Source: a virus (Duplodnaviria > Heunggongvirae > Uroviricota > Caudoviricetes). From it: a stretch of 47,226 bases of DNA. Location of the stretch: IMG/VR virus record IMGVR_UViG_2737471818_000007; one strand, given 5' to 3'. This document shows positions 583 through 42,356 of the stretch, piece by piece. The translations under genes and the position numbers were made by a program. The notes under the pieces were generated by a model. It worked only from the letters and a program-made list of their open reading frames with translations. It had not been told where the DNA came from and ran no database searches. How positions within the stretch are numbered: the stretch's first letter is position 1; every line of letters starts with the position of its first letter.

Positions 583-2906
583 TATGCAAGCCTCACAATA
601 TAGTTAAATGCAATGTTTTTGACGGTGTTTTCCGCGTTACCCGCAGCGTTAACGGTGATGGTGTGTCCGTGTGAACCAATACTGAAAGAATGGGCATGAG
701 CACCGATAACAACCGGATGCTGGTGCGCACCAATACCAACTGTATGCGCATGTGCACCGGCACTCACGGCTGTACCGGACAATGAGTGACTGTGGCTGCC
801 CTGACTGTCCGTTTTCGATAAATAAGCAATACCCTGTGTGTTGGTTCCTTTAACTGTGGATAAACTTCCTGTAATGGTTGCTGTTCCATACTGACTCCAG
901 CCAGAACTGTTCATCCTTAAACCACTTGTGTGGGCATGAGCACCCGCGGCCCCTGTTGAACCGCTCAGACTGTGAGCATGAGCCCCCGTGTTATTCGTCG
1001 ATTTGGTGCCGTAATCGAAACTGCCTGTTGTTTTCGTCCCGTAATCAAACGACGATGTGGTTTTCGTCCCCAAATCCGTACCGGATGCACTGGCACTGTG
1101 GGTGTGCGACTTAATTCCATCCTGTTCCTGAGACAATACAGCACGACCGCTGGCGGGTTTCCCCTTGATTGTCCAGCCTCGCATATCAGGAAGCACACCC
1201 GATGGATACGCGACAGCAAGTTTTGGGTAGGCTGATTTGTCAAACGCCTGCCCCTGCATCAGGACGTAGCCAGACGGAACGATATCTGATGGCCACGGGA
1301 TCGGCGCACCTGCCGGAAAGGCCGAATTCTCTCCGGCCCCAAGGTATTCAAGAACATCTGCAACGGAATTTTTTGCCAGAATATCCCTGCCAACCTGAGT
1401 CAGTTCAGTCAGGCTGGCGGCATCATTTTCCGCAAAATACGGTAATTTATTTTTCGCCGTGGAAAGCCCTGCCAGCGCCGTCAGTGTCGCATTCTTCGGT
1501 TGTTTACCCGCAAGCGCGTTAGTCATGGTGGTAGCAAAATCTGGATCATTCCCGAGCGCTGCGGCCAGTTCATTCAGCGTATTCAGTGCGTCAGGTGACG
1601 CGTCGATAACATCTGCAATCGCGGCCAGTACAAAAGCGGTGTTCGCAATCTGGGTATTGTTTGTTCCCCTGAGCGCGGTTGGTGCTGTTGGCGTTCCGGT
1701 CAGTGCCGGACTGTCCAGTGGGGCTTTTCTGTTCGTTTCATCCATTACCACCTTAACCGCCTTTGGCGTTGCAGCAAGCGTTTCAGACGTGCTGTTGGTT
1801 GCACTGCTGAGCTGCACTATCCCCTTTCTCGTTGTGTCCGCATCCTCAAGCGCGACAGCTGAAGCTATATCTTCTGCACGTTTTGCCGAATTTTCTGCAC
1901 GTATTGCCGCCGCTTCTGCCGCACTTTTGCTCTGCGATGCTGATACCGCACTTCCCGCAGCCTCTGTCGCCTTCGTGGATGCCGTTGACGCACTCCCCGC
2001 CGCCGCTGTTTTTGCGTCTGCCGCGGCAGAGGCGCTCCGTTCCGCTGCTGTTTCAGATGACCTGGCATTCGTCTCGGACGTTTTTGCCGCCCTGGCAGAA
2101 TTTTCTGCCGCCGTTGCCGAGGAAGCTGCACGACCGGCACTTGATGATGCGTTCGTTTCTGATGATTTTGCTGCCTCTTTTGAGGCCACCGCATCTCGTG
2201 CTGAAGTGGCGGCCTCTGACGCTTTCGTGGCCGCGGTGGAGGCAGACGTGGCGGCTGATTGTTGTGACGCTGCAGCATTCGTTTCTGACGTTTTCGCCGC
2301 ACCGGCACTGGTGGCCGCCGCGTTTTTTGAGGACTCTGCGGCTGCGGCACTTTTTTCCGCTTCAGTGGCCTTTGCTGATGCCGCTTCTGCGCCGGAGGAC
2401 GCTTCCTGAGCTGACGATGCAGCCTGTCCGGCGGACGTGCTGGCGGCGCGTGCTGAGTCAGTTGCATCAGTCACAAGGGCCGCGACCTGAGCAGCTGATG
2501 CACTGGCATCGCCGGCTGATTTCTTCGCGTCTGCCGTACTCTGTGCCACCACGGACGCGTTACGCGCCACCTCTTCCACCATCAGTTCAAGACGACGCAG
2601 CACCTCCGGCCGGGCATCATCCTCCGTCATGGCACAGAGAAAATCATTCAGCGTCCCCGGTTGTGAATCTTCATACACGGTGATGGTCCCGGCGTGCGAT
2701 GGTGGAAAACCGTCAACCTGCAGGATGACACTGTACTGACCGTACTCCACATCCATGCTGTAACGCCCGGCTTCATCCGGATTCTCTGAGCCCACCGTGT
2801 TCACCACCACCGTGGTGCTGTTACGTCTGGCTTTCAGCTGAATGGTGCAGTTCTGTACCGGTTTTCCTGTGCCGTCTTTCAGGACTCCTGAAATCTTTAC
2901 TGCCAT
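582..2906 (-). CDS. stf: side tail fibre protein (Stf-like)
   Basis: Track ORF 582..2912 begins at GTG; first ATG at 2906 gives [26 protein letters not shown] as in lambda Stf; long Ala/Ser-rich middle and His-rich GAHAH repeats near the C-terminus. Confidence 0.85.
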
Positions 2907-2970
2907 ATTCACCCCACAAAAAAGCCCACCGGTTCCGGCGGGCTGTCATAACACTGTGTTACCAGGCTAA

Positions 2971-3591
2971 TCAGAATTTATAACCGACCCCAACGATGAA
3001 TCCGTCAGTACGCCAGTCGCCACTGCCGGAGCCTTCATAAGCAATATCAACAACGACGGACGCTGCCGGATTAATCTGTATACCTGCACTCCACGCCACT
3101 GAGGTATGCCGCATTGCACTTTCGTCCCTGGCGGTGGTCGTCTCTTTCATATACCCGGGAGTGATTTCCGTCTTACGGTAATCCCTTGTACTGCCGGACC
3201 ACCGACTGTGAGCCACTCCGGCCATGGCGTACGCACTGACCTGCTTACTGATTTGTAAAACCGGTCCGGCCATCACGCTCACATAACGTCCACGCAGGCT
3301 CTCATAGTGAAACGTATCCTCCCCGGTCATCACTGTGCTGCTCTTTTTCGACGCGGCGAACCCCAGGGAAGCCATCACCCCCACACTGTCCGTCAGCTCA
3401 TAACGGTACTTCACGTTAATCCCTTTCAGATGACTCACACCGGTATCCCCGCCCGACAACGACGGCAATGTACCCGGTTTCACCTGAAAATAGCCCACCG
3501 TAAACGTACCATGTCCACCTTCCGCACGGGCCGGAGTGACTGTCACCGCAAGTGCGGCAAAGACAGCAACGGCAATACACACATTACGCAT
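2971..3591 (-). CDS. lom: Lom outer-membrane protein (Ail/Lom family)
   Basis: 206-aa ORF with signal peptide (MRNVCIAVAVFAALAVTVTPARA) and C-terminal GYKF typical of 8-strand beta-barrel Ail/Lom; lambda position between J and stf. Confidence 0.9.
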   Translation of the reverse strand: MRNVCIAVAVFAALAVTVTPARAEGGHGTFTVGYFQVKPGTLPSLSGGDTGVSHLKGINVKYRYELTDSVGVMASLGFAASKKSSTVMTGEDTFHYESLRGRYVSVMAGPVLQISKQVSAYAMAGVAHSRWSGSTRDYRKTEITPGYMKETTTARDESAMRHTSVAWSAGIQINPAASVVVDIAYEGSGSGDWRTDGFIVGVGYKF

Positions 3592-3652
3592 CGTTCACCT
3601 CTCACTGTTTTATAATAAAACGCCCGTTCCCGGACGAACCTCTGTAACACAC

Positions 3653-17236: not shown

Positions 17237-18853
17237 TTACGGCATACTCATCAGCAGTTCTTCTTCCCCGTTCCCGGCAGTTCCGCCACCGGAAACGGCA
17301 CTGGCGGCATGCTGTGCCATGAAGCGCTCAAAAAGTGTTACCTGTGACGGTTGCGATACTGATGGCGCAGCTGCCAGCAGCGTTTTCGCCTGCTCCACTG
17401 TCATTCCAGGTTGTTCAGCCAGCGCCTGTGCCAGTTTTTCGCGTCCTTTTGCTTCCGGCAACGCAATAATTTGATCGCCGGTACTTGCCGTACCGGTTGC
17501 CGGTGCCGCTGCCAGTAGCATTTTCGCCTGTTCCACCGTCATTCCCGGCTGTTCAGCCAGCGCCTGTGCGAGTTGTTCACGCCCTTTTGCTTCCGGAAGT
17601 ACCATAATCTGCTCGCCGGTACTTGCCGCACCGGCAACCGGTGCCGCTGCCAGTAACGTTTTCGCCTGCTCCACCGTCATTCCCGGCTGTTCAGCCAGCG
17701 TCCGTGCCAGTTGTTCACGTCCTTTTGCTTCCGGAAGTGCCACAATCTGATCGCCTGTGCTGTCAGTACCGGCAACCGGTGCTGCCGCCAGTAATGTTTT
17801 TGCCTGCTCAACTGACATTCCCTGCTGACCTGCCAGCATCTGCGCCAGTTTTTCGCGTCCTTTCGCCTCCTGACAATTCAGGATCCCCATCACGCGCTGA
17901 TTTTCCTGGGACACCGCTTCAGCAACGGTGAGATTTTTTGTTGTCATCGTATTCTCCTGTGTAACAGAGTCGTTCAGAGCAGAAACCATTACATCAACGG
18001 CATCTGCAGCATTAATCAGTTGATCAGCCAGGCCTGTATCAATGCCTGCCTGGCCGTCATAAACGGCAGCCTCGGTATTCATCACCACCTCTGAACTCAG
18101 CCCCGTATAAAGTGCCACCTTGTCGACAAACATCCGGCGGGCCTCATCAATACGGCGCTGAAAATCCGCACGCACACCTGTCGGCAACGCCTGAATACTG
18201 TTGCCGTCAACCTTGTGCTGCCCGGAGTAAATCAGCGTGATATCCACGCCTTCCTGTGCCAGTTGTTTCTCGTAACTGGTGTGCGCCATCATCACACCAA
18301 TCGAACCAATTTTTGCCGTCTGCGTGACCAGCCGACGCGTACAGGCCGCCGCCAGCAACATGGCGGCTGAACAGGCCATGTCATTACACAGCGCCCACAC
18401 GGGCTTCTGTTCCCGCAGACGGTAAATCATGTCAGCACAGTCAAACGCCCCGGCAGCCTGACCGCCCGGACTGTCGATATCCAGTAAAATGCCGCGTACA
18501 TCCGGGTCGTTCACCGCTGACTTAAGACGGGCAGTCAGACCGTCATAACCGGTCATACCGGAATATGGCCGCAGGGTACCCATTTTATGTACCAACGTGC
18601 CGCTCACCGGCAGAATGGCAATACCATTTTTCACCTGGTAACTCTTTACCGGACGCGGACCACCAGTCATATAATCGGTAACCGCCAGCTGCATACCATC
18701 GGCATCAAGCTGAACGGCCTGCTGCGGAACGGCAAGGTTGCCCGCCCCCATCTCCTTACCCAGTGCGCAAAAGAAAACCCGCGCATAGGCGGGTTCCAGT
18801 AAAAGCGGCTCATTAAATGCCATCGCGGCAATATGTGATAAATTACAGCGCAT
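17237..18853 (-). CDS. C: head maturation protease C (S49/ClpP-like) with scaffold (Nu3-like) C-terminal region
   Basis: 538-aa ORF; N-terminus and protease core are collinear with lambda gpC; C-terminal region carries four tandem copies of a ~46-aa unit; start overlaps the B stop. Confidence 0.9.
   Translation of the reverse strand: MRCNLSHIAAMAFNEPLLLEPAYARVFFCALGKEMGAGNLAVPQQAVQLDADGMQLAVTDYMTGGPRPVKSYQVKNGIAILPVSGTLVHKMGTLRPYSGMTGYDGLTARLKSAVNDPDVRGILLDIDSPGGQAAGAFDCADMIYRLREQKPVWALCNDMACSAAMLLAAACTRRLVTQTAKIGSIGVMMAHTSYEKQLAQEGVDITLIYSGQHKVDGNSIQALPTGVRADFQRRIDEARRMFVDKVALYTGLSSEVVMNTEAAVYDGQAGIDTGLADQLINAADAVDVMVSALNDSVTQENTMTTKNLTVAEAVSQENQRVMGILNCQEAKGREKLAQMLAGQQGMSVEQAKTLLAAAPVAGTDSTGDQIVALPEAKGREQLARTLAEQPGMTVEQAKTLLAAAPVAGAASTGEQIMVLPEAKGREQLAQALAEQPGMTVEQAKMLLAAAPATGTASTGDQIIALPEAKGREKLAQALAEQPGMTVEQAKTLLAAAPSVSQPSQVTLFERFMAQHAASAVSGGGTAGNGEEELLMSMP
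17360..17875 (-). repeat. four in-frame tandem repeats (~138 nt each) inside gene C
   Basis: Peptide unit LPEAKGREQLAxxLAEQPGMTVEQAKTLLAAAPxxGxxSTGxQIx repeated four times (residues ~327-498); the nucleotide repeats are visible by eye. Confidence 0.85.
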
Positions 18854-27056: not shown

Positions 27057-28106
27057 TTAACCCGCCTGCTCCATTATTTCACCAACGGTCTGTTCAAAAC
27101 GTTCTTTTTCCAGTTCCACGCCAGTCGCCCTGCGTCCCAGTGACAGTGCCGCTTTTATTGTCGCCCCCGACCCCATAAAAAAATCGGCAACCAAATCACC
27201 GGGGCGACTGCTGGCCTCAATTATCTGCCGCAACATATCGGCTGGTTTTTCACAGGGATGTTTGCCCGGATAATACTGCACGGGCTTGTGCGTCCAGACA
27301 TCCGTATACGGAACGGCAACTGATACGGAAAAATAACGCCGCAGGGATTTGTACTCCTTCAGCAGGCTGGCATATTGCCGGTTCAGTTCACTGTATGTGC
27401 TGACCAGCTGGTGGTGTGGCTTTTCCAGTTCCCCGCGTTGATGTTTTTCTGCTGCAACACGCGCAAACAACGCCTGTAATTTCAGATAATCACCTTCGTT
27501 CGGCAACTGCCACTGACTGATACCAAACCAGTGCGAAGCCATGTTTTTCTTTCCGGTGGCTTCCGCTATCTGTTTTGACGTTATTCCCAGTGATTCACGC
27601 GCATCACGAAAGTAAGAAATCAGCGGGGCCATGACGTGCTGTTTTAGCTCGCTCCCCTTTGCCGCATAGCCGTCATTTTTGGGCCGGTATGGCCCCTGAT
27701 AATGTTCTGCAAACAGAATGCGTTCTGTTGCCGGGAAATACGCCCGCAGGCTTTCCTTGTTGCATCCGTTCCAGCGTCCGGACGGCTTCGCCCAGATAAT
27801 GTGGTTCAGCACATTAAAGCGCTCACGCATCATGATTTCGATATCAGATGCCAGGCGATGACCACAGAACAGGTAGAGACTTCCGGCAGGTTTCAGTACC
27901 CGCCAGAACTGCGCCAGACACTGTTCCAGCCATTTCAGGTAATCATCGTCGCCCTTCCACTGGTTATCCCAGCCCTCGGGCTTCACTTTAAAGTATGGCG
28001 GGTCTGTGACTATCAGATCGACTGAGTTTTCCGGTAAGGTCTGGATAAATTCCAGGCAATCAGCGTTGATTAACTCACAACTGGATATTTTTACAGTATT
28101 AACCAT
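27057..28106 (-). CDS. DNA methyltransferase, beta-class N6-adenine/N4-cytosine type
   Basis: 349-aa ORF with ATG at 28106; motif IV DPPY near the N-terminus (LIVTDPPYF) and motif I FxGxG near the C-terminus (DFFMGSGAT). Confidence 0.8.
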   Translation of the reverse strand: MVNTVKISSCELINADCLEFIQTLPENSVDLIVTDPPYFKVKPEGWDNQWKGDDDYLKWLEQCLAQFWRVLKPAGSLYLFCGHRLASDIEIMMRERFNVLNHIIWAKPSGRWNGCNKESLRAYFPATERILFAEHYQGPYRPKNDGYAAKGSELKQHVMAPLISYFRDARESLGITSKQIAEATGKKNMASHWFGISQWQLPNEGDYLKLQALFARVAAEKHQRGELEKPHHQLVSTYSELNRQYASLLKEYKSLRRYFSVSVAVPYTDVWTHKPVQYYPGKHPCEKPADMLRQIIEASSRPGDLVADFFMGSGATIKAALSLGRRATGVELEKERFEQTVGEIMEQAG

Positions 28107-28713: not shown

Positions 28714-30117
28714 ATGGCTCGTAAAGATTTCACTCAGCAAATAGACATTCCAATTCAAAATATCCTCCTCGATACTGAAAATGCCAGAATCCGCGCAGGT
28801 AGAGATCAAAACAACTGCATTTCAAGGATATTGCGTAAAGAAAACCAGATGCTTGTATTGATGGAGGATATTGCAGAAAACGGACTTACAACCATGCCCA
28901 TATTGGTTATGCCTCACTCAGAAGGTAAATGGGTAGTTAAAGATGGTAATAGACGAATAACAGCTTTAAAACTATTAAATAACCCAGATAGTTGCCCGGA
29001 ACCACATTTAATTCCGAAAATAAAAAAAATAAAAGAAAAATATCATGACAACATACCTACTACTGTTGACTGTTTATCAAGTGACAATTTTGAAGCAGTA
29101 TTTAAAGAGATAATAGCAAGGCATTCTGGAGCACGTAATGGTGCTGGTCAATATGACTGGTTTGCATATATGCGAACAATTTATCTATTAAATAATGGAC
29201 ATCCAACTGATTATAAAAGAGCTGGTCAATATATGTGTTGGGCTGAACAAGAAGGCATTGATGTAGATGATGATTTCCCAATCACTAGTGTAGCCAGATT
29301 CTTTACTAGAGATAATCTTCTATTGTTAGGATTTGAAGTGGAAAATGATAAATTGAAGCCAATACTCTCAAAAGAAAAAATAATAAAAATGGCCTCAAAA
29401 ATTAATAGCGACTTTTCTTCAAAAATAGTTGATGTTAACACCGTCTTTAATCCTAGCGATGCAAAGAAATATCTTTGCTCGGTAAGAAAATATGCAGGAA
29501 TAATAGATGATTTTGCTTACAATAGTGATGACACAGAACAAGAAAATAATAAAAAAGAAGAAACAAATAAATGTTCCTCTCCATCTGAAGTGGATAACAA
29601 TAATGCGCAATCAGATAGTAAGAGTGACGCACCTGTACTACTAAAAAAACACGCAGGTAGAGGAGGTACACCTAAAAAAATACCAGCAGAGCGAAATAAA
29701 ATTTTTGGTAGAGGAAAGCCTGGAATTACTATTCCTGAAAATGAGACTAAAATAAGAACTATAATCTCAGAACTTAGGCAATTAGATGTAAAAAAAACAA
29801 CTCTTGCAACTGCATTTCTTCTTCGGGCACTGCTGGAGTTAAGTGATAAAGAATATAGAACAATTAACAAGTTGCAAGATAAAAAAAGCTTAGCTAAAAA
29901 TATTGCTAATAGCGCAGATCATATGTTGAAAAATAATCTAATCACTGACTCAGAACACCATATAATATCAGCTTATACTCGCGGCGAGCAAGGAACTGTG
30001 CACATTGAAACTTTACAAAAATTAATTCACAGAGAGACACATCACCCAGATTATATCTCAATTAATGTTTTTTGGGACAATATAGGTTGTTTTGTTCGAG
30101 CTTGTTGGAAAGATTAA
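28714..30117 (+). CDS. ParB/Srx-fold (DGxRR motif) N-terminal domain protein, unknown function; candidate nuclease or defence protein
   Basis: 467-aa ORF with ATG at 28714; N-terminus has ParB-like motifs (ILLDTENARIR; GLTTMPILVMP; VVKDGNRRITALKLL); Lys-rich low-complexity linker; His-rich C-terminal domain; very AT-rich. Confidence 0.65.
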   Translation: MARKDFTQQIDIPIQNILLDTENARIRAGRDQNNCISRILRKENQMLVLMEDIAENGLTTMPILVMPHSEGKWVVKDGNRRITALKLLNNPDSCPEPHLIPKIKKIKEKYHDNIPTTVDCLSSDNFEAVFKEIIARHSGARNGAGQYDWFAYMRTIYLLNNGHPTDYKRAGQYMCWAEQEGIDVDDDFPITSVARFFTRDNLLLLGFEVENDKLKPILSKEKIIKMASKINSDFSSKIVDVNTVFNPSDAKKYLCSVRKYAGIIDDFAYNSDDTEQENNKKEETNKCSSPSEVDNNNAQSDSKSDAPVLLKKHAGRGGTPKKIPAERNKIFGRGKPGITIPENETKIRTIISELRQLDVKKTTLATAFLLRALLELSDKEYRTINKLQDKKSLAKNIANSADHMLKNNLITDSEHHIISAYTRGEQGTVHIETLQKLIHRETHHPDYISINVFWDNIGCFVRACWKD

Positions 30118-30163: not shown

Positions 30164-31018
30164 TCATTTCTTCTTCATAGAGGGAGTGCTATGAATATTT
30201 AAATTTTTATATACCATAAGTTCTGTAACTCTTGGCCTTGTCAAATGAGTTGAGTAATGTAAAGAAAACTCCACAATTTTTTCGTCTTTATATAACTTCC
30301 TGATTTCTTCACAATTATCATATGTAACAATTATCGGAGTGGAAATATCCTTAACCTTTTCAGAAATTAATTTATGATCATGAGGTTTATAATGATTTCT
30401 ATAAAGCTGGCTACCTTTTTCATAATATGGAGGATCAAGATAAATTAGAGATTTTTTTGGTAGTGTATTTTTTATACTACCAATCAACTCACAGGCATCC
30501 AAATTATAAAGATCAATAAATTTTTTCATTCCACCTATTTTTTTTACTCTTTCACATAGTTTCTTCTTATTATACCTAGCATCAATCTTATATTTACCAC
30601 TCTGTTCTTTTCCTCCTATAACCCCACCTGATAAGATTCCAGAACGATTGGTTCGATTGAGAAAAAACGTAGCAAAACCAATAGATAAAATATCATGTTT
30701 AGTATAATTGTTTATTACATCTTTTTGCTTATACCAATTATCCATTGTTACTTCTGTTTCATTTATCAATGAAATAAATTTATCATTCTCATTTAACACT
30801 GACCACCAAAATGAGTAAACAACAGGATCCAAATCATTAATAATGACATGATCTACATATCCATGCATTAGCAAATACAATGCAGCTCCTGCGCCGCCAG
30901 CATATGGCTCCACATAATACCCACCACTAATTCCGTTATACCTCAGCAGTTCTGATATCCAAGGCCCCATCCTCCCTTTTCCACCGGGATAACGTAATGG
31001 GGTAAAAAATGTAGTCAT
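30164..31018 (-). CDS. DNA adenine methyltransferase, D12 (Dam-like) class
   Basis: Track ORF 30164..31054 trimmed to the ATG at 31018 (MTTFFTPLRYPGGKGRM..); motifs YPGGK, VEPYAGGAG, FLNRTNRSG, YLDPPYY parallel E. coli Dam; AT-rich; convergent with the ParB-like gene. Confidence 0.8.
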   Translation of the reverse strand: MTTFFTPLRYPGGKGRMGPWISELLRYNGISGGYYVEPYAGGAGAALYLLMHGYVDHVIINDLDPVVYSFWWSVLNENDKFISLINETEVTMDNWYKQKDVINNYTKHDILSIGFATFFLNRTNRSGILSGGVIGGKEQSGKYKIDARYNKKKLCERVKKIGGMKKFIDLYNLDACELIGSIKNTLPKKSLIYLDPPYYEKGSQLYRNHYKPHDHKLISEKVKDISTPIIVTYDNCEEIRKLYKDEKIVEFSLHYSTHLTRPRVTELMVYKNLNIHSTPSMKKK

Positions 31019-31105
31019 GCTGAACCTCATACAAAACCAGGAAATTAAATGCATTTTACCCTAAATCACATCAATTCTAAATAACTAAATTAACAGTATT
31101 AAAAT

Positions 31106-38084: not shown

Positions 38085-38831
38085 TTACTTCACAACCCTT
38101 AAATGGCTGACATTTGAACGCCAGCTATCCCAGTTAAAATTCACCCAGCGACCACCGTTCATGGCCATGCGGTCCATCACGCGTTCGCCAAGCAGCGTAT
38201 TCATCGCCGCATGGTTCAGATTCGTCAGCATCCCGACGCTGTGCATCGAGGCCGTTCTGCGATCGAATATCTGGTTCAGTGTGACCTGTTCGTTACGCGT
38301 ATCCCGCTGCATACCGATTTCATCCAGGATAAGCAGGTCAACTTCACACAACCCCTGCAAAAATTTTTCGCCTGAGTTTTTGTTGTCGTAGTTGCCGTGC
38401 AACGCCAGCATCACATCCGCCACCGTCACAACAATCACGCTGCGACCTTTCGCCAGAAGATGGTTACCAATGGCTGCTGCCAGATGATTCTTTCCGGTAC
38501 CAGGCTTACCGCTGAACACAAAATTCGTGCACCCGCTCATCAGTTCGTCTGCAATGGACTTCGCCTGGCTGAGTGCATGACGCTGTCCGTCGTTCTGCAT
38601 CTGGTAATTCGCAAACGAACATTTCTGGTGCAACGGCTGAATACCGGAACGATTCAGGAATTTTTCCACCCGCAACTGGCGATTCTGGCGGTTAATCTCC
38701 TCGCTACGTTTTCGCTCTTCTGCAAGCTGCCACTCTCTCCACTCGTCCACTGTCCGGTACCGCGCGGTTACATGCTGCGGGGCCAGCTTACGGATACGTT
38801 CAAGAACACCACCTGCCGCAATATTTTTCAT
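38085..38831 (-). CDS. DnaC-like helicase loader (IstB-type AAA+ ATPase)
   Basis: 248-aa ORF with Walker [16 protein letters not shown] and Walker B LLILDEIG; lambda P position. Confidence 0.85.
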
Positions 38832-38837
38832 GGCCCG

Positions 38838-39857
38838 TTACCCCCTGAACCCCGGCGGAATTTCGGTGTCCGGCTCGGAAATGTGATTCACGCAACGCTG
38901 CGCGGGACCACGCCACAGTCGAATCACCAGTTCATCCCATTTTTCACGGAGTTTTGACGGGCTCTTGATGTTTTTTATCCAGAACGGATCCCGTTGTGCC
39001 CGACTAAACATTTCGCAAATTTGCCTGTGAGTTCTGCCGTCAAGCACCCGCATCATGCGCACGTCATTGGCCCACTCTGTCCAGTTAGGTTCTTTAGGAC
39101 GCGTGATCTCGCCATCATCGCTGGCAGCCTGTTCGTAAAGACTGACAACTCGCCCCCAAATCCACTGAGCGCATGCCAAATCTTCCTGGGTTCCCCACCG
39201 ACTTTTTTTCGCACTGAACACAACCGCGTCAGGATGTCGGGTTAAAAAATCCGGTTCAGTCGTCTGCGGGTCCGGTTGCGAAGCTTCCGGACGAAAAGTG
39301 TTTTTATTCTCTGTAGTAATCTCTGTTGTATTCTCTGTAAGATCATCAGGCCATTTTGACCCGATGACATTGGGTCGTTTTGAACCAATGGAGCGTTTCA
39401 TTTTGACCTCTTCCATCGTGTCATTTTGACCTGATGGAGCGGCGCATTTTGAACCGATGGATTCGTTCAATTTGCCACCATCTAAAAGCTCGCTCCCATA
39501 GTTGATCGTGTAGAAATTGGTCATATCGCGCTTTGATTTATTGAGCTTTTCACAACGCAAAAGCCCCAGCGTTTTCAGACTTGCAAACGCGCGCTTTAAC
39601 GTTGACTCTGACCAGAATGGGAACTGTTCCAGCCATTGTTCCGTTGTGTTATAAATCCAGCGAACACCATCACATTCCATACCGGAGTTGGTATCTCTCA
39701 ACCAGTAGTGCAGTTGTTGCAAAACAATGGCTTCGTTTAAGCCGATTCTCATTGCCAGCTGCGTGTTTATAACCAGTGGGCGTTCAGCAAAAAGAAGGCT
39801 CATAATTCCATCCAGCTTTTTGTTGGTATTGCTGTCGATACGCAAGTTTGAAAGCAA
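38838..39857 (-). CDS. replication initiator (O-like) containing the origin iterons
   Basis: 339-aa ORF; N-terminus ..MSLLFAERPLVINTQLAMRIGLNEAIVLQQLHYWL typical of phage replication initiators; the true start may be the ATG at 39803. Confidence 0.75.
   Translation of the reverse strand: MLSNLRIDSNTNKKLDGIMSLLFAERPLVINTQLAMRIGLNEAIVLQQLHYWLRDTNSGMECDGVRWIYNTTEQWLEQFPFWSESTLKRAFASLKTLGLLRCEKLNKSKRDMTNFYTINYGSELLDGGKLNESIGSKCAAPSGQNDTMEEVKMKRSIGSKRPNVIGSKWPDDLTENTTEITTENKNTFRPEASQPDPQTTEPDFLTRHPDAVVFSAKKSRWGTQEDLACAQWIWGRVVSLYEQAASDDGEITRPKEPNWTEWANDVRMMRVLDGRTHRQICEMFSRAQRDPFWIKNIKSPSKLREKWDELVIRLWRGPAQRCVNHISEPDTEIPPGFRG
39350..39480. repeat. origin-like iterons inside the O-like gene
   Basis: Five to six direct repeats of the form CATTTTGA(A/C)C(C/T)(G/A)ATGG at ~22-25 bp spacing, encoding repeated SIGSK peptides; as in lambda ori. 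Confidence 0.65.
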
Positions 39858-40305
39858 TTGCTTTTTCTATAAGTTCGTCAGTTTCACGATCCACTACGGC
39901 AGGATCAGCAAAAAGCAGTCCGGACTCCACCACATCGCCATATTCTTTGTTTAACCCGGCGATCATGTACGTGATGCTTTTTCCGTCACTAATTTCACGA
40001 TACAATCTGAAATCATTAATCCGGATAGCCTCCATAATTGCAGGCACTAGCGCCGTGAACTTTTCACGCTTATCCCTGGTGTCGATAGCCTTCCAGCGTT
40101 CGAATATCTTCACTCGATTAACGCCAAGCGCTCGCTGATCAACCGCGCCACCTTCATCTGTGACACGCTGAACATCGATGTTCGGGCGCTCTTTCAAAGC
40201 CCAGAATGCTTCAGTGATTAATATCGTCGCCTGCTCCTGTGTCATTCCTAGTCGACATATCCAGGCATCCAGAGCCTCACGAGCCTGTTCAGGAGTGATT
40301 TTCAT
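39784..40305 (-). CDS. hypothetical protein at the cII position (YdaT-like?)
   Basis: 173-aa ORF between the cro-like dicC and the O-like gene; family assignment uncertain. Confidence 0.5.
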   Translation of the reverse strand: MKITPEQAREALDAWICRLGMTQEQATILITEAFWALKERPNIDVQRVTDEGGAVDQRALGVNRVKIFERWKAIDTRDKREKFTALVPAIMEAIRINDFRLYREISDGKSITYMIAGLNKEYGDVVESGLLFADPAVVDRETDELIEKAIAFKLAYRQQYQQKAGWNYEPSFC

Positions 40306-40519
40306 TGTTCAACCGCCCCGCCCGCTTCGTCTTACGATATTCGTCATAAACCTTGGGATCATACTGAAGCTCGCCGCCAGATGCCTCCTGTAGACGCATC
40401 GCGCGATCTTCGGGAACTAAATCCCCTTTCCAGCTATAAAGCGAAGCCAAACGAATACCTGCTGCTTGTGCAAGTTTTGTTTTTGAACCGAAATACAAAA
40501 GAGCGTCAGTTTTAAGCAT
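40289..40519 (-). CDS. dicC: DicC, Cro-like regulator
   Basis: 76-aa ORF MLKTDALLYFGSKTKLAQAAGIRLASLYSWKGDLVPE.. matching Qin DicC (recalled); divergent from dicA. Confidence 0.85.
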   Translation of the reverse strand: MLKTDALLYFGSKTKLAQAAGIRLASLYSWKGDLVPEDRAMRLQEASGGELQYDPKVYDEYRKTKRAGRLNNENHS

Positions 40520-40602
40520 TTAAAACACCTTGATTGTTAGCCATGACTAACAAAATAGATGTTAACAAAAACATAGTCAATACGATTTAGCATTAGCTAA
40601 CT

Positions 40603-41010
40603 ATGGATACAAAAAATTTAACTATCGGCGAACGCATTAGGTATCGTCGGAAAAACCTCAAACACACCCAAAGGTCTCTTGCTAAAGCCCTGAAAATCTC
40701 CCATGTGTCTGTATCACAATGGGAACGGGATGATAGTGAACCTACAGGGAAGAACCTTTTTGCCCTCAGCAAAGTATTGCAATGCTCACCAACATGGATT
40801 CTATTTGGCGATGAAGACAAGCAACCAACACCACCTGTTGAGAAGCCAGTTGCCTTATCTCCCAAAGAACTAGAGCTCCTTGAGCTGTTTAATGCACTGC
40901 CAGAATCAGAACAGGATACCCAGCTCGCCGAAATGCGAGCTCGAGTAAAAAACTTCAATAAACTCTTTGAAGAATTACTAAAAGCCCGTCAGCGGACAAA
41001 TAAAAGATAA
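40603..41010 (+). CDS. dicA: DicA, HTH-XRE repressor (CI-like)
   Basis: 135-aa ORF MDTKNLTIGERIRYRRKNLKHTQRSLAKALKISHVSVSQWER.. matching Qin DicA (recalled). Confidence 0.9.
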   Translation: MDTKNLTIGERIRYRRKNLKHTQRSLAKALKISHVSVSQWERDDSEPTGKNLFALSKVLQCSPTWILFGDEDKQPTPPVEKPVALSPKELELLELFNALPESEQDTQLAEMRARVKNFNKLFEELLKARQRTNKR

Positions 41011-42099: not shown

Positions 42100-42175
42100 C
42101 CCCGCTGCAACAACCCATGTTGATTACCTTTTGGCGGCATCAGTTTCATTGCTGGCTGATGTCCGTCCTTTTTAA
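42100..42175 (+). ncRNA. dicF: DicF-like small RNA (divergent variant)
   Basis: Located upstream of dicB; TTTGGCGGCATCAGTTTCATTGCTGGCTGATGTCCGTCCTTTTT (hairpin plus U-run) followed by the TAAAGTGAATTTTGTGATG.. sequence that I recall flanking K-12 dicF; the core differs from K-12 dicF. Confidence 0.4.
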
Positions 42176-42356
42176 AGTGAATTTTGTGATGCGGTGAATG
42201 CGGCTCAGCGCACGCGGAACAGTTAAAAAGGCCAGTTGACTTCCGTATTGGTTCTTATGGGTGGGTTCTCTGTATCCGGCGTTAATTGTTAACTGGTTAA
42301 CGTCACCTGGAGGCACCAGGCACCGCATCACAAAATTCATTGTTGAGGACGCGATA

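Follow-up and report, generated by a model that had tools for sequence, protein, structure and literature searches.

In phage lambda, the replication origin (ori) lies in the middle of the initiator gene O (38686-39585 in the lambda record), where transcription first meets four dyad-symmetric 18-bp iterons (TCCCTCAAAACGAGGGA, 20 to 24 bp apart, 39034-39118) and then an AT-rich stretch with a purine bias on one strand (ACACAAAAGACACTATTACAAAAGAAAAAAGAAAAGATTATT). In RepA_N plasmids (pSK41) and in SPP1 (G38P/oriL), the initiator gene contains iterons that are bound by the winged-helix N-terminal domain (N-domain) of its product, and this domain is followed by a C-terminal domain (C-domain) specific to the host or the loader. 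In Stx phages 933W and P27, six iterons lie in O, and the promoter-proximal ones are the most degenerate or least bound (PMC7466680); for the Rac prophage, an active origin (oriJ) has been reported (PMC3945230). We analyzed the 47,226-nucleotide viral record IMGVR_UViG_2737471818_000007 (the whole stretch is called the window here), in which a repeat array occupies the middle of an O-like initiator gene. This region is very probably the lambda-type theta replication origin of the prophage, set in the part of the initiator gene that encodes its central linker. A sequence-only reading of the window had noted that the iterons mirror lambda ori and mark the probable origin, and the layout, the operon, the homology of the C-domain, and constraint on the DNA all support that view. 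The proposed origin is ordinary in layout, though unannotated.

The array (39344-39490, minus strand) consists of five good iterons and one eroded iteron at intervals of 23 to 24 bp, which bears out the earlier description of five to six direct repeats, spaced ~22 to 25 bp apart, within the initiator coding sequence. The iteron core on the coding strand is GGTCAAAATG, with the consensus G(G/T)TCAAAA(T/C)G. On the plus strand, the core CATTTTGACC and its variants (motif CATTTTGA(A/C)C..) start at 39352, 39376, 39399, 39422, and 39445, and a degenerate sixth copy, CAATTTGCCA, starts at 39468, a position at which relatives carry a good copy. Repeat finding in the window returned one family spaced 23, 23, and 23 bp and another spaced 24, 46, and 23 bp (start to start), and Tandem Repeats Finder (TRF) recovered a period of 23 with 3.7 copies at 39378-39461. 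When the 16-mer of the sequence-only reading was searched with at most one mismatch, there were four matches in 47 kb, every one inside 39352-39460; four cores with at most one mismatch fell within 150 bp, compared to a maximum of 2 and a mean of 1.05 in 200 simulated first-order Markov sequences.

In three of the units (39422-39444, 39375-39398, and 39344-39366), the sequence forms an imperfect 23-bp palindrome (CATCRGG..CCYGATG), and it is because the iterons are palindromic that the region folds as a single strand (z score of -3.6). An RNA element was considered and rejected: Rfam at an E value of ≤1 gave nothing in 38.8 to 39.9 kb. The array takes up codons 105 to 152 of 321; its six units, three with dyad arms, agree with the pattern of lambda-type origins, in which four or more direct repeats of about 18 to 23 bp with internal dyad symmetry occupy the middle of the initiator gene. 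No second iteron cluster was found in the 47-kb window, and a second origin there was rejected, since core matches outside the array were isolated singles.

Immediately next to the iterons is an AT-rich segment with three 12-bp repeats, which read TACAGAGAATAC, AACAGAGATTAC, and TACAGAGAATAA on the coding strand (65% purine in this segment) and encode the peptide LTENTTEITTENK. The corresponding TCTCTGT copies (39308-39314, 39320-39326, and 39332-39338) are spaced exactly 12 bp apart, and TRF reported a period of 12 with 2.7 copies at 39308-39339, so that repeat analysis recovered both periodicities, 23 and 12. The sequence-only reading was right about three copies of this second family and wrong to place it just upstream of the iterons: because the host gene is read from the minus strand, the TCTCTGT repeats come after the iterons, on their 3′ side. 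A search for an unwinding element beside the iterons found the least stable 40-mer of the gene, which starts at 39301, has a ΔG of -44.3 kcal/mol (window mean, -55.3; standard deviation, 4.6), and ranks among the 1.5% least stable of the whole window. Both single strands of the AT-rich element lack structure, but shuffled sequences of matched composition lack it to no lesser degree, and this property is not discriminating. As in lambda-type origins, an easily melted AT-rich segment thus adjoins the iterons on the promoter-distal side. The TCTCTGT family takes the position of the lambda AT-rich unwinding region and is not an accessory upstream repeat.

Constraint on the repeats acts at the level of the DNA and does not depend on the encoded protein. 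A period of 23 bp is not divisible by 3, and the same core, GGTCAAAATG, falls in frames 1, 0, 2, 1, and 1 and encodes GSK, GQN, and VKM; with cores in all three frames, the array is therefore not a peptide repeat. Pairwise differences per codon were compared among 12 distinct close relatives. Synonymous and nonsynonymous values were 0.141 and 0.013 in the N-domain and 0.168 and 0.064 in the C-domain, compared to 0.020 and 0.070 in the iterons and 0.000 and 0.040 in the 12-mer (AT) element. Relative to the flanking domains, synonymous variation in the iteron array was ~7-fold lower and amino acid variation was higher, an inversion of the usual pattern. A 241-bp origin segment was 99.6% identical to that of phage PhiR42_1, while the surrounding 1.76 kb was 94.7% identical. 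In relatives down to ~75% N-domain identity (Citrobacter, Raoultella, Enterobacter, and Izhakiella), the cores were kept and substitutions fell in the spacers.

The identification of the host gene as an O-like initiator, first made from the letters alone, was upheld by its PHROGs match and by the relationship of its C-domain to lambda O (Table 1). The PhiR42_1 orthologue, of 966 nt, is annotated as "DNA replication protein O." The mechanical open reading frame (ORF) reaches TTG 39857, and the homologues all begin MSLLF; the longer, TTG-started ORF is probably unused. From 5′ to 3′, the gene is made up of the N-domain (codons 1 to 104), the iterons, the 12-bp repeats (codons 153 to 168), and the C-domain. 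The alignment with lambda O extends over 148 amino acids (window residues 147 to 294), from the last iteron through the peptide encoded by the AT-rich segment to the end of the C-domain. The final 23 residues (GPAQRCVNHISEPDTEIPPGFRG) match the extreme C terminus of the primosomal protein DnaT of Escherichia coli, and the NCBIfam DnaT match covers this tail only. The same ending is seen in mEp460-type initiators and Rac YdaU (IPPGFRG or IPAGFRG). A phage DnaC gene is absent downstream in some records of DnaT-tailed initiators (PhiR42_1 and mEp460_4F5), and the host dnaT-dnaC operon resembles the phage initiator-loader gene pair.

Homologues of the N-domain are phage O-like and "DnaD-like" proteins from Gram-negative and Gram-positive hosts, and phrog_6493, "DnaD-like helicase loader," matches initiator residues 19 to 186 (E value of 8.2e-37). 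An AlphaFold2 (AF2) model, built from a shallow alignment, gave the N-domain as helix-helix-strand-strand-helix-helix and the C-domain as helical. Residues 84 to 180, the origin-encoded stretch, were disordered in the model, as expected under the origin reading because the DNA would dictate that peptide. In Foldseek searches with the model, the best matches, which were weak, were to the iteron-binding N-terminal domain of staphylococcal RepA (5kbj and 4pql; E value of 0.015 to 0.02; template modeling [TM] score to target, 0.56), and winged helix-turn-helix regulators ranked next. We presume that the N-domain binds the iterons as a winged-helix domain.

To place the array in a wider context, a genome-wide search was run with an N-domain alignment, so that loci were picked by protein similarity alone. 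It yielded 80 loci, 70 of them with full-length genes, spanning Enterobacterales to Pseudomonas, Bacillus, Geobacillus, Staphylococcus, and Limosilactobacillus. At least three repeats at a spacing of 20 to 25 bp (or multiples) directly followed the N-domain region in 55 of the 70 full-length homologues. The window's core class, GGTCAAAATG, was found in Escherichia, Citrobacter, Proteus, Xenorhabdus, and Edwardsiella; the cores GGGCAAATTGCCC and GGACAATTTGTCC belonged to Pantoea, Yersinia, and Erwinia lineages and TGTTCAAAATGAAC to Anoxybacillus and Geobacillus. The "DnaD-like" gene of Staphylococcus phage vB_SauS_fPfSau02 encodes a homologous N-domain and carries three copies of the core AGGTCAAAATGAC (locus position, ~1500 to 1560); the recurrence of both N-domain and iteron core in a phage of a Gram-positive host suggests that the protein and its binding site were paired long ago and have stayed together. 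Iteron similarity rose with N-domain identity, from 9.8 to 14.6 matches of 20 (Spearman coefficient, 0.32). DNA matches to the initiator were present in 2,319 of 5,426 complete E. coli genomes, with at least 80% of the gene covered in 1,749, and 4,301 protein homologues were found. Nearly all source records call the initiator a "hypothetical protein," without a domain.

The surrounding genes follow the order cI, cro, cII, O, and DnaC-like loader, which puts the array in a pR operon, downstream of cro and cII, as in lambda. A transcript from the pR-like promoter would, as judged from its consensus match, cross cro, cII, the origin, and the loader gene. The 3′ end of the cII-like/YdaT gene overlaps the start of the initiator by 20 nt (39784-39803), as it does in phage PhiR42_1. 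NCBI-type domain matches to the loader were PRK12377 (E value of 3.4e-146) and DnaC (E value of 7.9e-93).

The locus thus shares with lambda a set of dyad-symmetric iterons in the middle of the initiator gene, followed in the transcription direction by an AT-rich segment with a purine bias on one strand. It differs in several parts. The iterons are six of the GGTCAAAATG type, 23 to 24 bp apart; the AT-rich part repeats strictly every 12 bp; the N-domain has no detectable relation to lambda O and no Pfam Phage_rep_O match; the initiator ends in a DnaT-like tail; and the loader is DnaC/IstB-like and not lambda P, so that an O/P module was not found. Taken together, the anatomy is of the lambda type, with a different DNA-binding module and a DnaC-type instead of a P-type loader. 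Like 933W and P27, it has six iterons, and the eroded unit is also promoter proximal; the iterons and O of those phages are nearly identical to lambda's, whereas those of the window class are not. Some other Stx1/Stx2 phages (e.g., LC567819) have a third initiator type, in which GGGAAAC-type repeats are followed by the same ACAGAGA 12-mer element.

Rac shows the same gene order (dicA/racR-like, cro-like, ydaT-like, initiator, DnaC-like ydaV, and ydaW), ~81% DNA identity in the loader gene region, and, in YdaU, the ending IPPGFRG found in the window. YdaU differs in being a DUF1376-type protein (ydaU at locus 2818-3606); in ydaU, no iteron array was detectable (seed of 7), and no TE.TTE/12-mer element was found. 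Iterons of Rac ydaU were considered as an experimental anchor (oriJ) and set aside, as none were found at that seed and the K-12 table holds no origin feature. Among Gram-positive systems, Staphylococcus, Geobacillus, and Anoxybacillus prophages share homologous N-domains and the same iteron core, and the staphylococcal RepA N-terminal domain is the best structural match of the window model. The differences from RepA_N and SPP1 are that this fold match is weak (E value of 0.015), with no match at the sequence level, and that hosts and loader partners are not the same.

From this anatomy we infer how binding, melting, helicase recruitment, and origin activity would proceed. An early pR-like transcript (leftward in the window and of the rightward type) would express the O-like initiator. 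Winged-helix N-domain dimers would then occupy the five or six 23-bp iterons and wrap this DNA into a complex resembling the O-some, and the resulting stress would melt the adjoining AT-rich 12-mer repeat. The lambda-O-like C-domain and the DnaT-like tail, which may be a shared DnaB/DnaC-recruitment peptide, would recruit host DnaB helicase and the phage DnaC-like loader to the melted strands.

Several observations weigh against the origin reading or its details. The right palindrome arm is missing in two of the five good units (39445-39467 and 39399-39421). The N-domain matches no family in Pfam (E value of ≤0.01) or NCBIfam, the structural model is of low confidence (predicted local distance difference test [pLDDT] value of 55), and the fold matches are weak; because of these three points, DNA binding by the N-domain is something we infer. 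The correlation between N-domain identity and iteron similarity fits coevolution, yet linkage alone could give it. Low synonymous divergence could come in part from recent recombination across the origin segment. No origin feature appears in the feature tables of PhiR42_1, mEp460_4F5, or K-12 Rac. No DnaA box (TTWTNCACA) was found within 3 kb, which ruled out a DnaA-box-driven origin; lambda needs none either.

The 12-mer element extends well beyond this class of initiator. In blastn searches with the origin segment, initiator genes with unrelated iterons and N-domains matched solely over the TCTCTGT/ACAGAGA stretch, among them genes of Stx1/Stx2, Klebsiella, Bacillus, and Staphylococcus phages. 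An exact-pattern scan of viral contigs for ACAGAGAWTACWACAGAGA returned at least 120 loci, and in 117 of the 120 loci listed the element read as ACA GAG in the longest open frame, mostly frames of ~300 amino acids. The 111 genes retained (window included) fell into 18 N-domain subfamilies and 12 C-domain clusters on contigs of 33 to 58% GC, and each subfamily representative examined had its own repeat array directly 5′ of the element. In the protein-selected set, 47 of 70 homologues had at least two in-frame copies (consensus, WTACWACAGAGA; 2 to 5 copies), and 67 of 70 intervals were 12 nt. The element was present in 121 phage records, always with replication-initiator annotations where annotated, and in 52 plasmid records. 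In Bacillus velezensis plasmids of 8.4 to 8.9 kb, it occurs (97% over 33 nt) at sites without a listed gene, where it may mark the replication region.

Codon use within the T-E-x-T-T-E peptide indicates constraint at the nucleotide level. Glutamate was encoded by GAG 140 times and by GAA once (674 and 907 elsewhere in the same genes), and threonine was encoded by ACA or ACT 229 times and never by another codon (604 and 692 elsewhere); the comparison ignores shared ancestry, and the lineages span Enterobacterales and Bacillales. The 12-mer repeat WTACWACAGAGA (peptide TE(N/I)TTE) is thus conserved as nucleotides in initiator genes from Proteobacteria to Firmicutes. A literature search on the 12-mer sequence, the TEITTE peptide, and the Phg_2220_C domain gave nothing relevant; older subscription papers lay outside its coverage, so this is not proof of novelty.

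We tentatively propose, as a possibility and not as a probable reading, that two to five copies of WTACWACAGAGA form both a sequence-specific, universal unwinding or helicase-loading site 3′ of the iterons and a joint for module recombination. Its range would take in initiator genes from both phages and plasmids, in Enterobacterales, Acinetobacter, Vibrio, Burkholderia, Bacillus, Geobacillus, Staphylococcus, and Lactobacillus, and it would be indifferent to iteron sequence, N-domain class, C-domain class, and loader type. Homology breakpoints bear on the second role: among 153 distinct genes, 55 of 57 internal starts of high-scoring segment pairs lay from -40 to +39 nt of the element, and 197 of 332 internal ends lay 0 to 79 nt after it. 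E. coli O157 prophage genes match the window from the C-domain only as far as 39304 (38840-39304), and Klebsiella phages match it only from 39308 through the N-domain (39308-39749). These breakpoints and matches mark the 12-mer element as the joint at which gene halves (N-domain plus iterons and C-domain) are exchanged between phages.

It is somewhat unlikely, though a serious competitor to a sequence-specific site, that conservation of TCTCTGT/ACAGAGA reflects only such a recombination joint, or selection for the TEITTE peptide, and that any AT-rich DNA would melt as well. The clustered breakpoints, the individual matches that stop or start at the element, and its nearly constant reading as ACA GAG all fit this explanation, as does the finding that the AT-rich tract of Stx phages and lambda is dispensable for O-some formation (PMC7466680). 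The codon bias contradicts a purely peptide-level constraint, however, and duplex stability within the gene is lowest at this element. A viable crossover must lie between the last iteron and the C-domain, so that breakpoints there are expected under either view, and roles in unwinding and in recombination are not mutually exclusive.

The array could also consist of true initiator-binding sites that serve autoregulation, copy control, or superinfection interference by titration, with replication starting elsewhere. Cloned copies of lambda ori are known to interfere with phage growth (PMC4488673 and PMC3349717). We consider this improbable, given that the window holds no second iteron cluster, the least stable stretch of the gene lies right beside the array, the pairing of iterons with an AT element is retained in many initiator classes, and lambda ori, which has been defined by experiment, has the same layout. 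That the repeats merely reflect duplication within a low-complexity protein linker (SIGSK-type peptide repeats) and play no part in cis has next to no likelihood: the peptide does read SIGSK, SIGSK, and VIGSK and is predicted to be disordered, but the reading-frame and synonymous-site analyses ruled out a peptide repeat, and arrays with family-specific cores are kept in most of the protein-selected homologues.

Table 1. Features of the proposed origin and of the early operon around it (window coordinates)
Feature	Position	Strand	Basis
O-like replication initiator gene (321 amino acids from ATG 39803)	38838-39803	-	phrog_391 "replication initiation O-like," E 8.6e-90
N-terminal domain region (~amino acids 1-104), presumed winged-helix, iteron binding	39492-39803	-	homologous N-domains in other phages
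Iteron units	39468-39490 (eroded), 39445-39467, 39422-39444, 39399-39421, 39375-39398, 39344-39366	-	repeat finding, TRF
AT-rich segment with three 12-bp repeats, candidate unwinding and helicase-loading region	39296-39343	-	GC 0.30, duplex stability
C-terminal domain region, homologous to lambda O C-domain	38841-39295	-	BLASTP, 36% identity, E 4e-29
C-terminal tail SEPDTEIPPGFRG, last 23 codons, common to E. coli DnaT C terminus	38841-38909	-	PDB 6aep, 2ru8, 9zbt; NCBIfam DnaT
DnaC-like helicase loader (YdaV-like), directly downstream of initiator	38085-38831	-	IstB_IS21, E 2.1e-18; phrog_50 "DnaC-like helicase loader," E 3e-81
cII-like/YdaT-family gene, upstream of initiator	39784-40305	-	domain/PHROGs matches
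Cro/DicC-like gene	40289-40519	-	P22_Cro, E 3.4e-12
pR-like sigma-70 promoter, TTGACT-17-TATTTT	40552-40580	-	consensus match only
cI/DicA-like repressor gene, divergent from early operon	40603-41010	+	domain/PHROGs matches

The remainder of the window is a complete lambda-like prophage, with genes for a tail fiber, J, tape measure, head protease, terminase, RecE-type exonuclease, and integrase. Just past the immunity region, at 42118-42334 (plus strand), there are subthreshold Rfam matches to DicF (28.6 bits; E value of 0.003) and STnc100 (33.7 bits; E value of 1e-4). A 138-bp tandem repeat (17370-17870; 3.6 copies with 84% matches) lies inside the head maturation protease/scaffold gene (17237-18853, minus strand). 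Two DNA methyltransferase genes (27057-28106 and 30164-31054, both on the minus strand) flank a 467-amino-acid ORF (28714-30117, plus strand; phrog_9592) that is oriented opposite to the late and nin-region genes on either side.

An iteron array followed by the 12-mer is a simple signature by which origins and initiator genes can be located in lambdoid and many other temperate phages and phage-plasmids, and the initiator class concerned is common yet almost always recorded as a "hypothetical protein." If the 12-mer acts in a sequence-specific manner, it would point to an origin-opening or helicase-loading step common to phages of distant hosts, and it would explain how initiator genes can be shuffled without parting a DNA-binding domain from its own binding sites.

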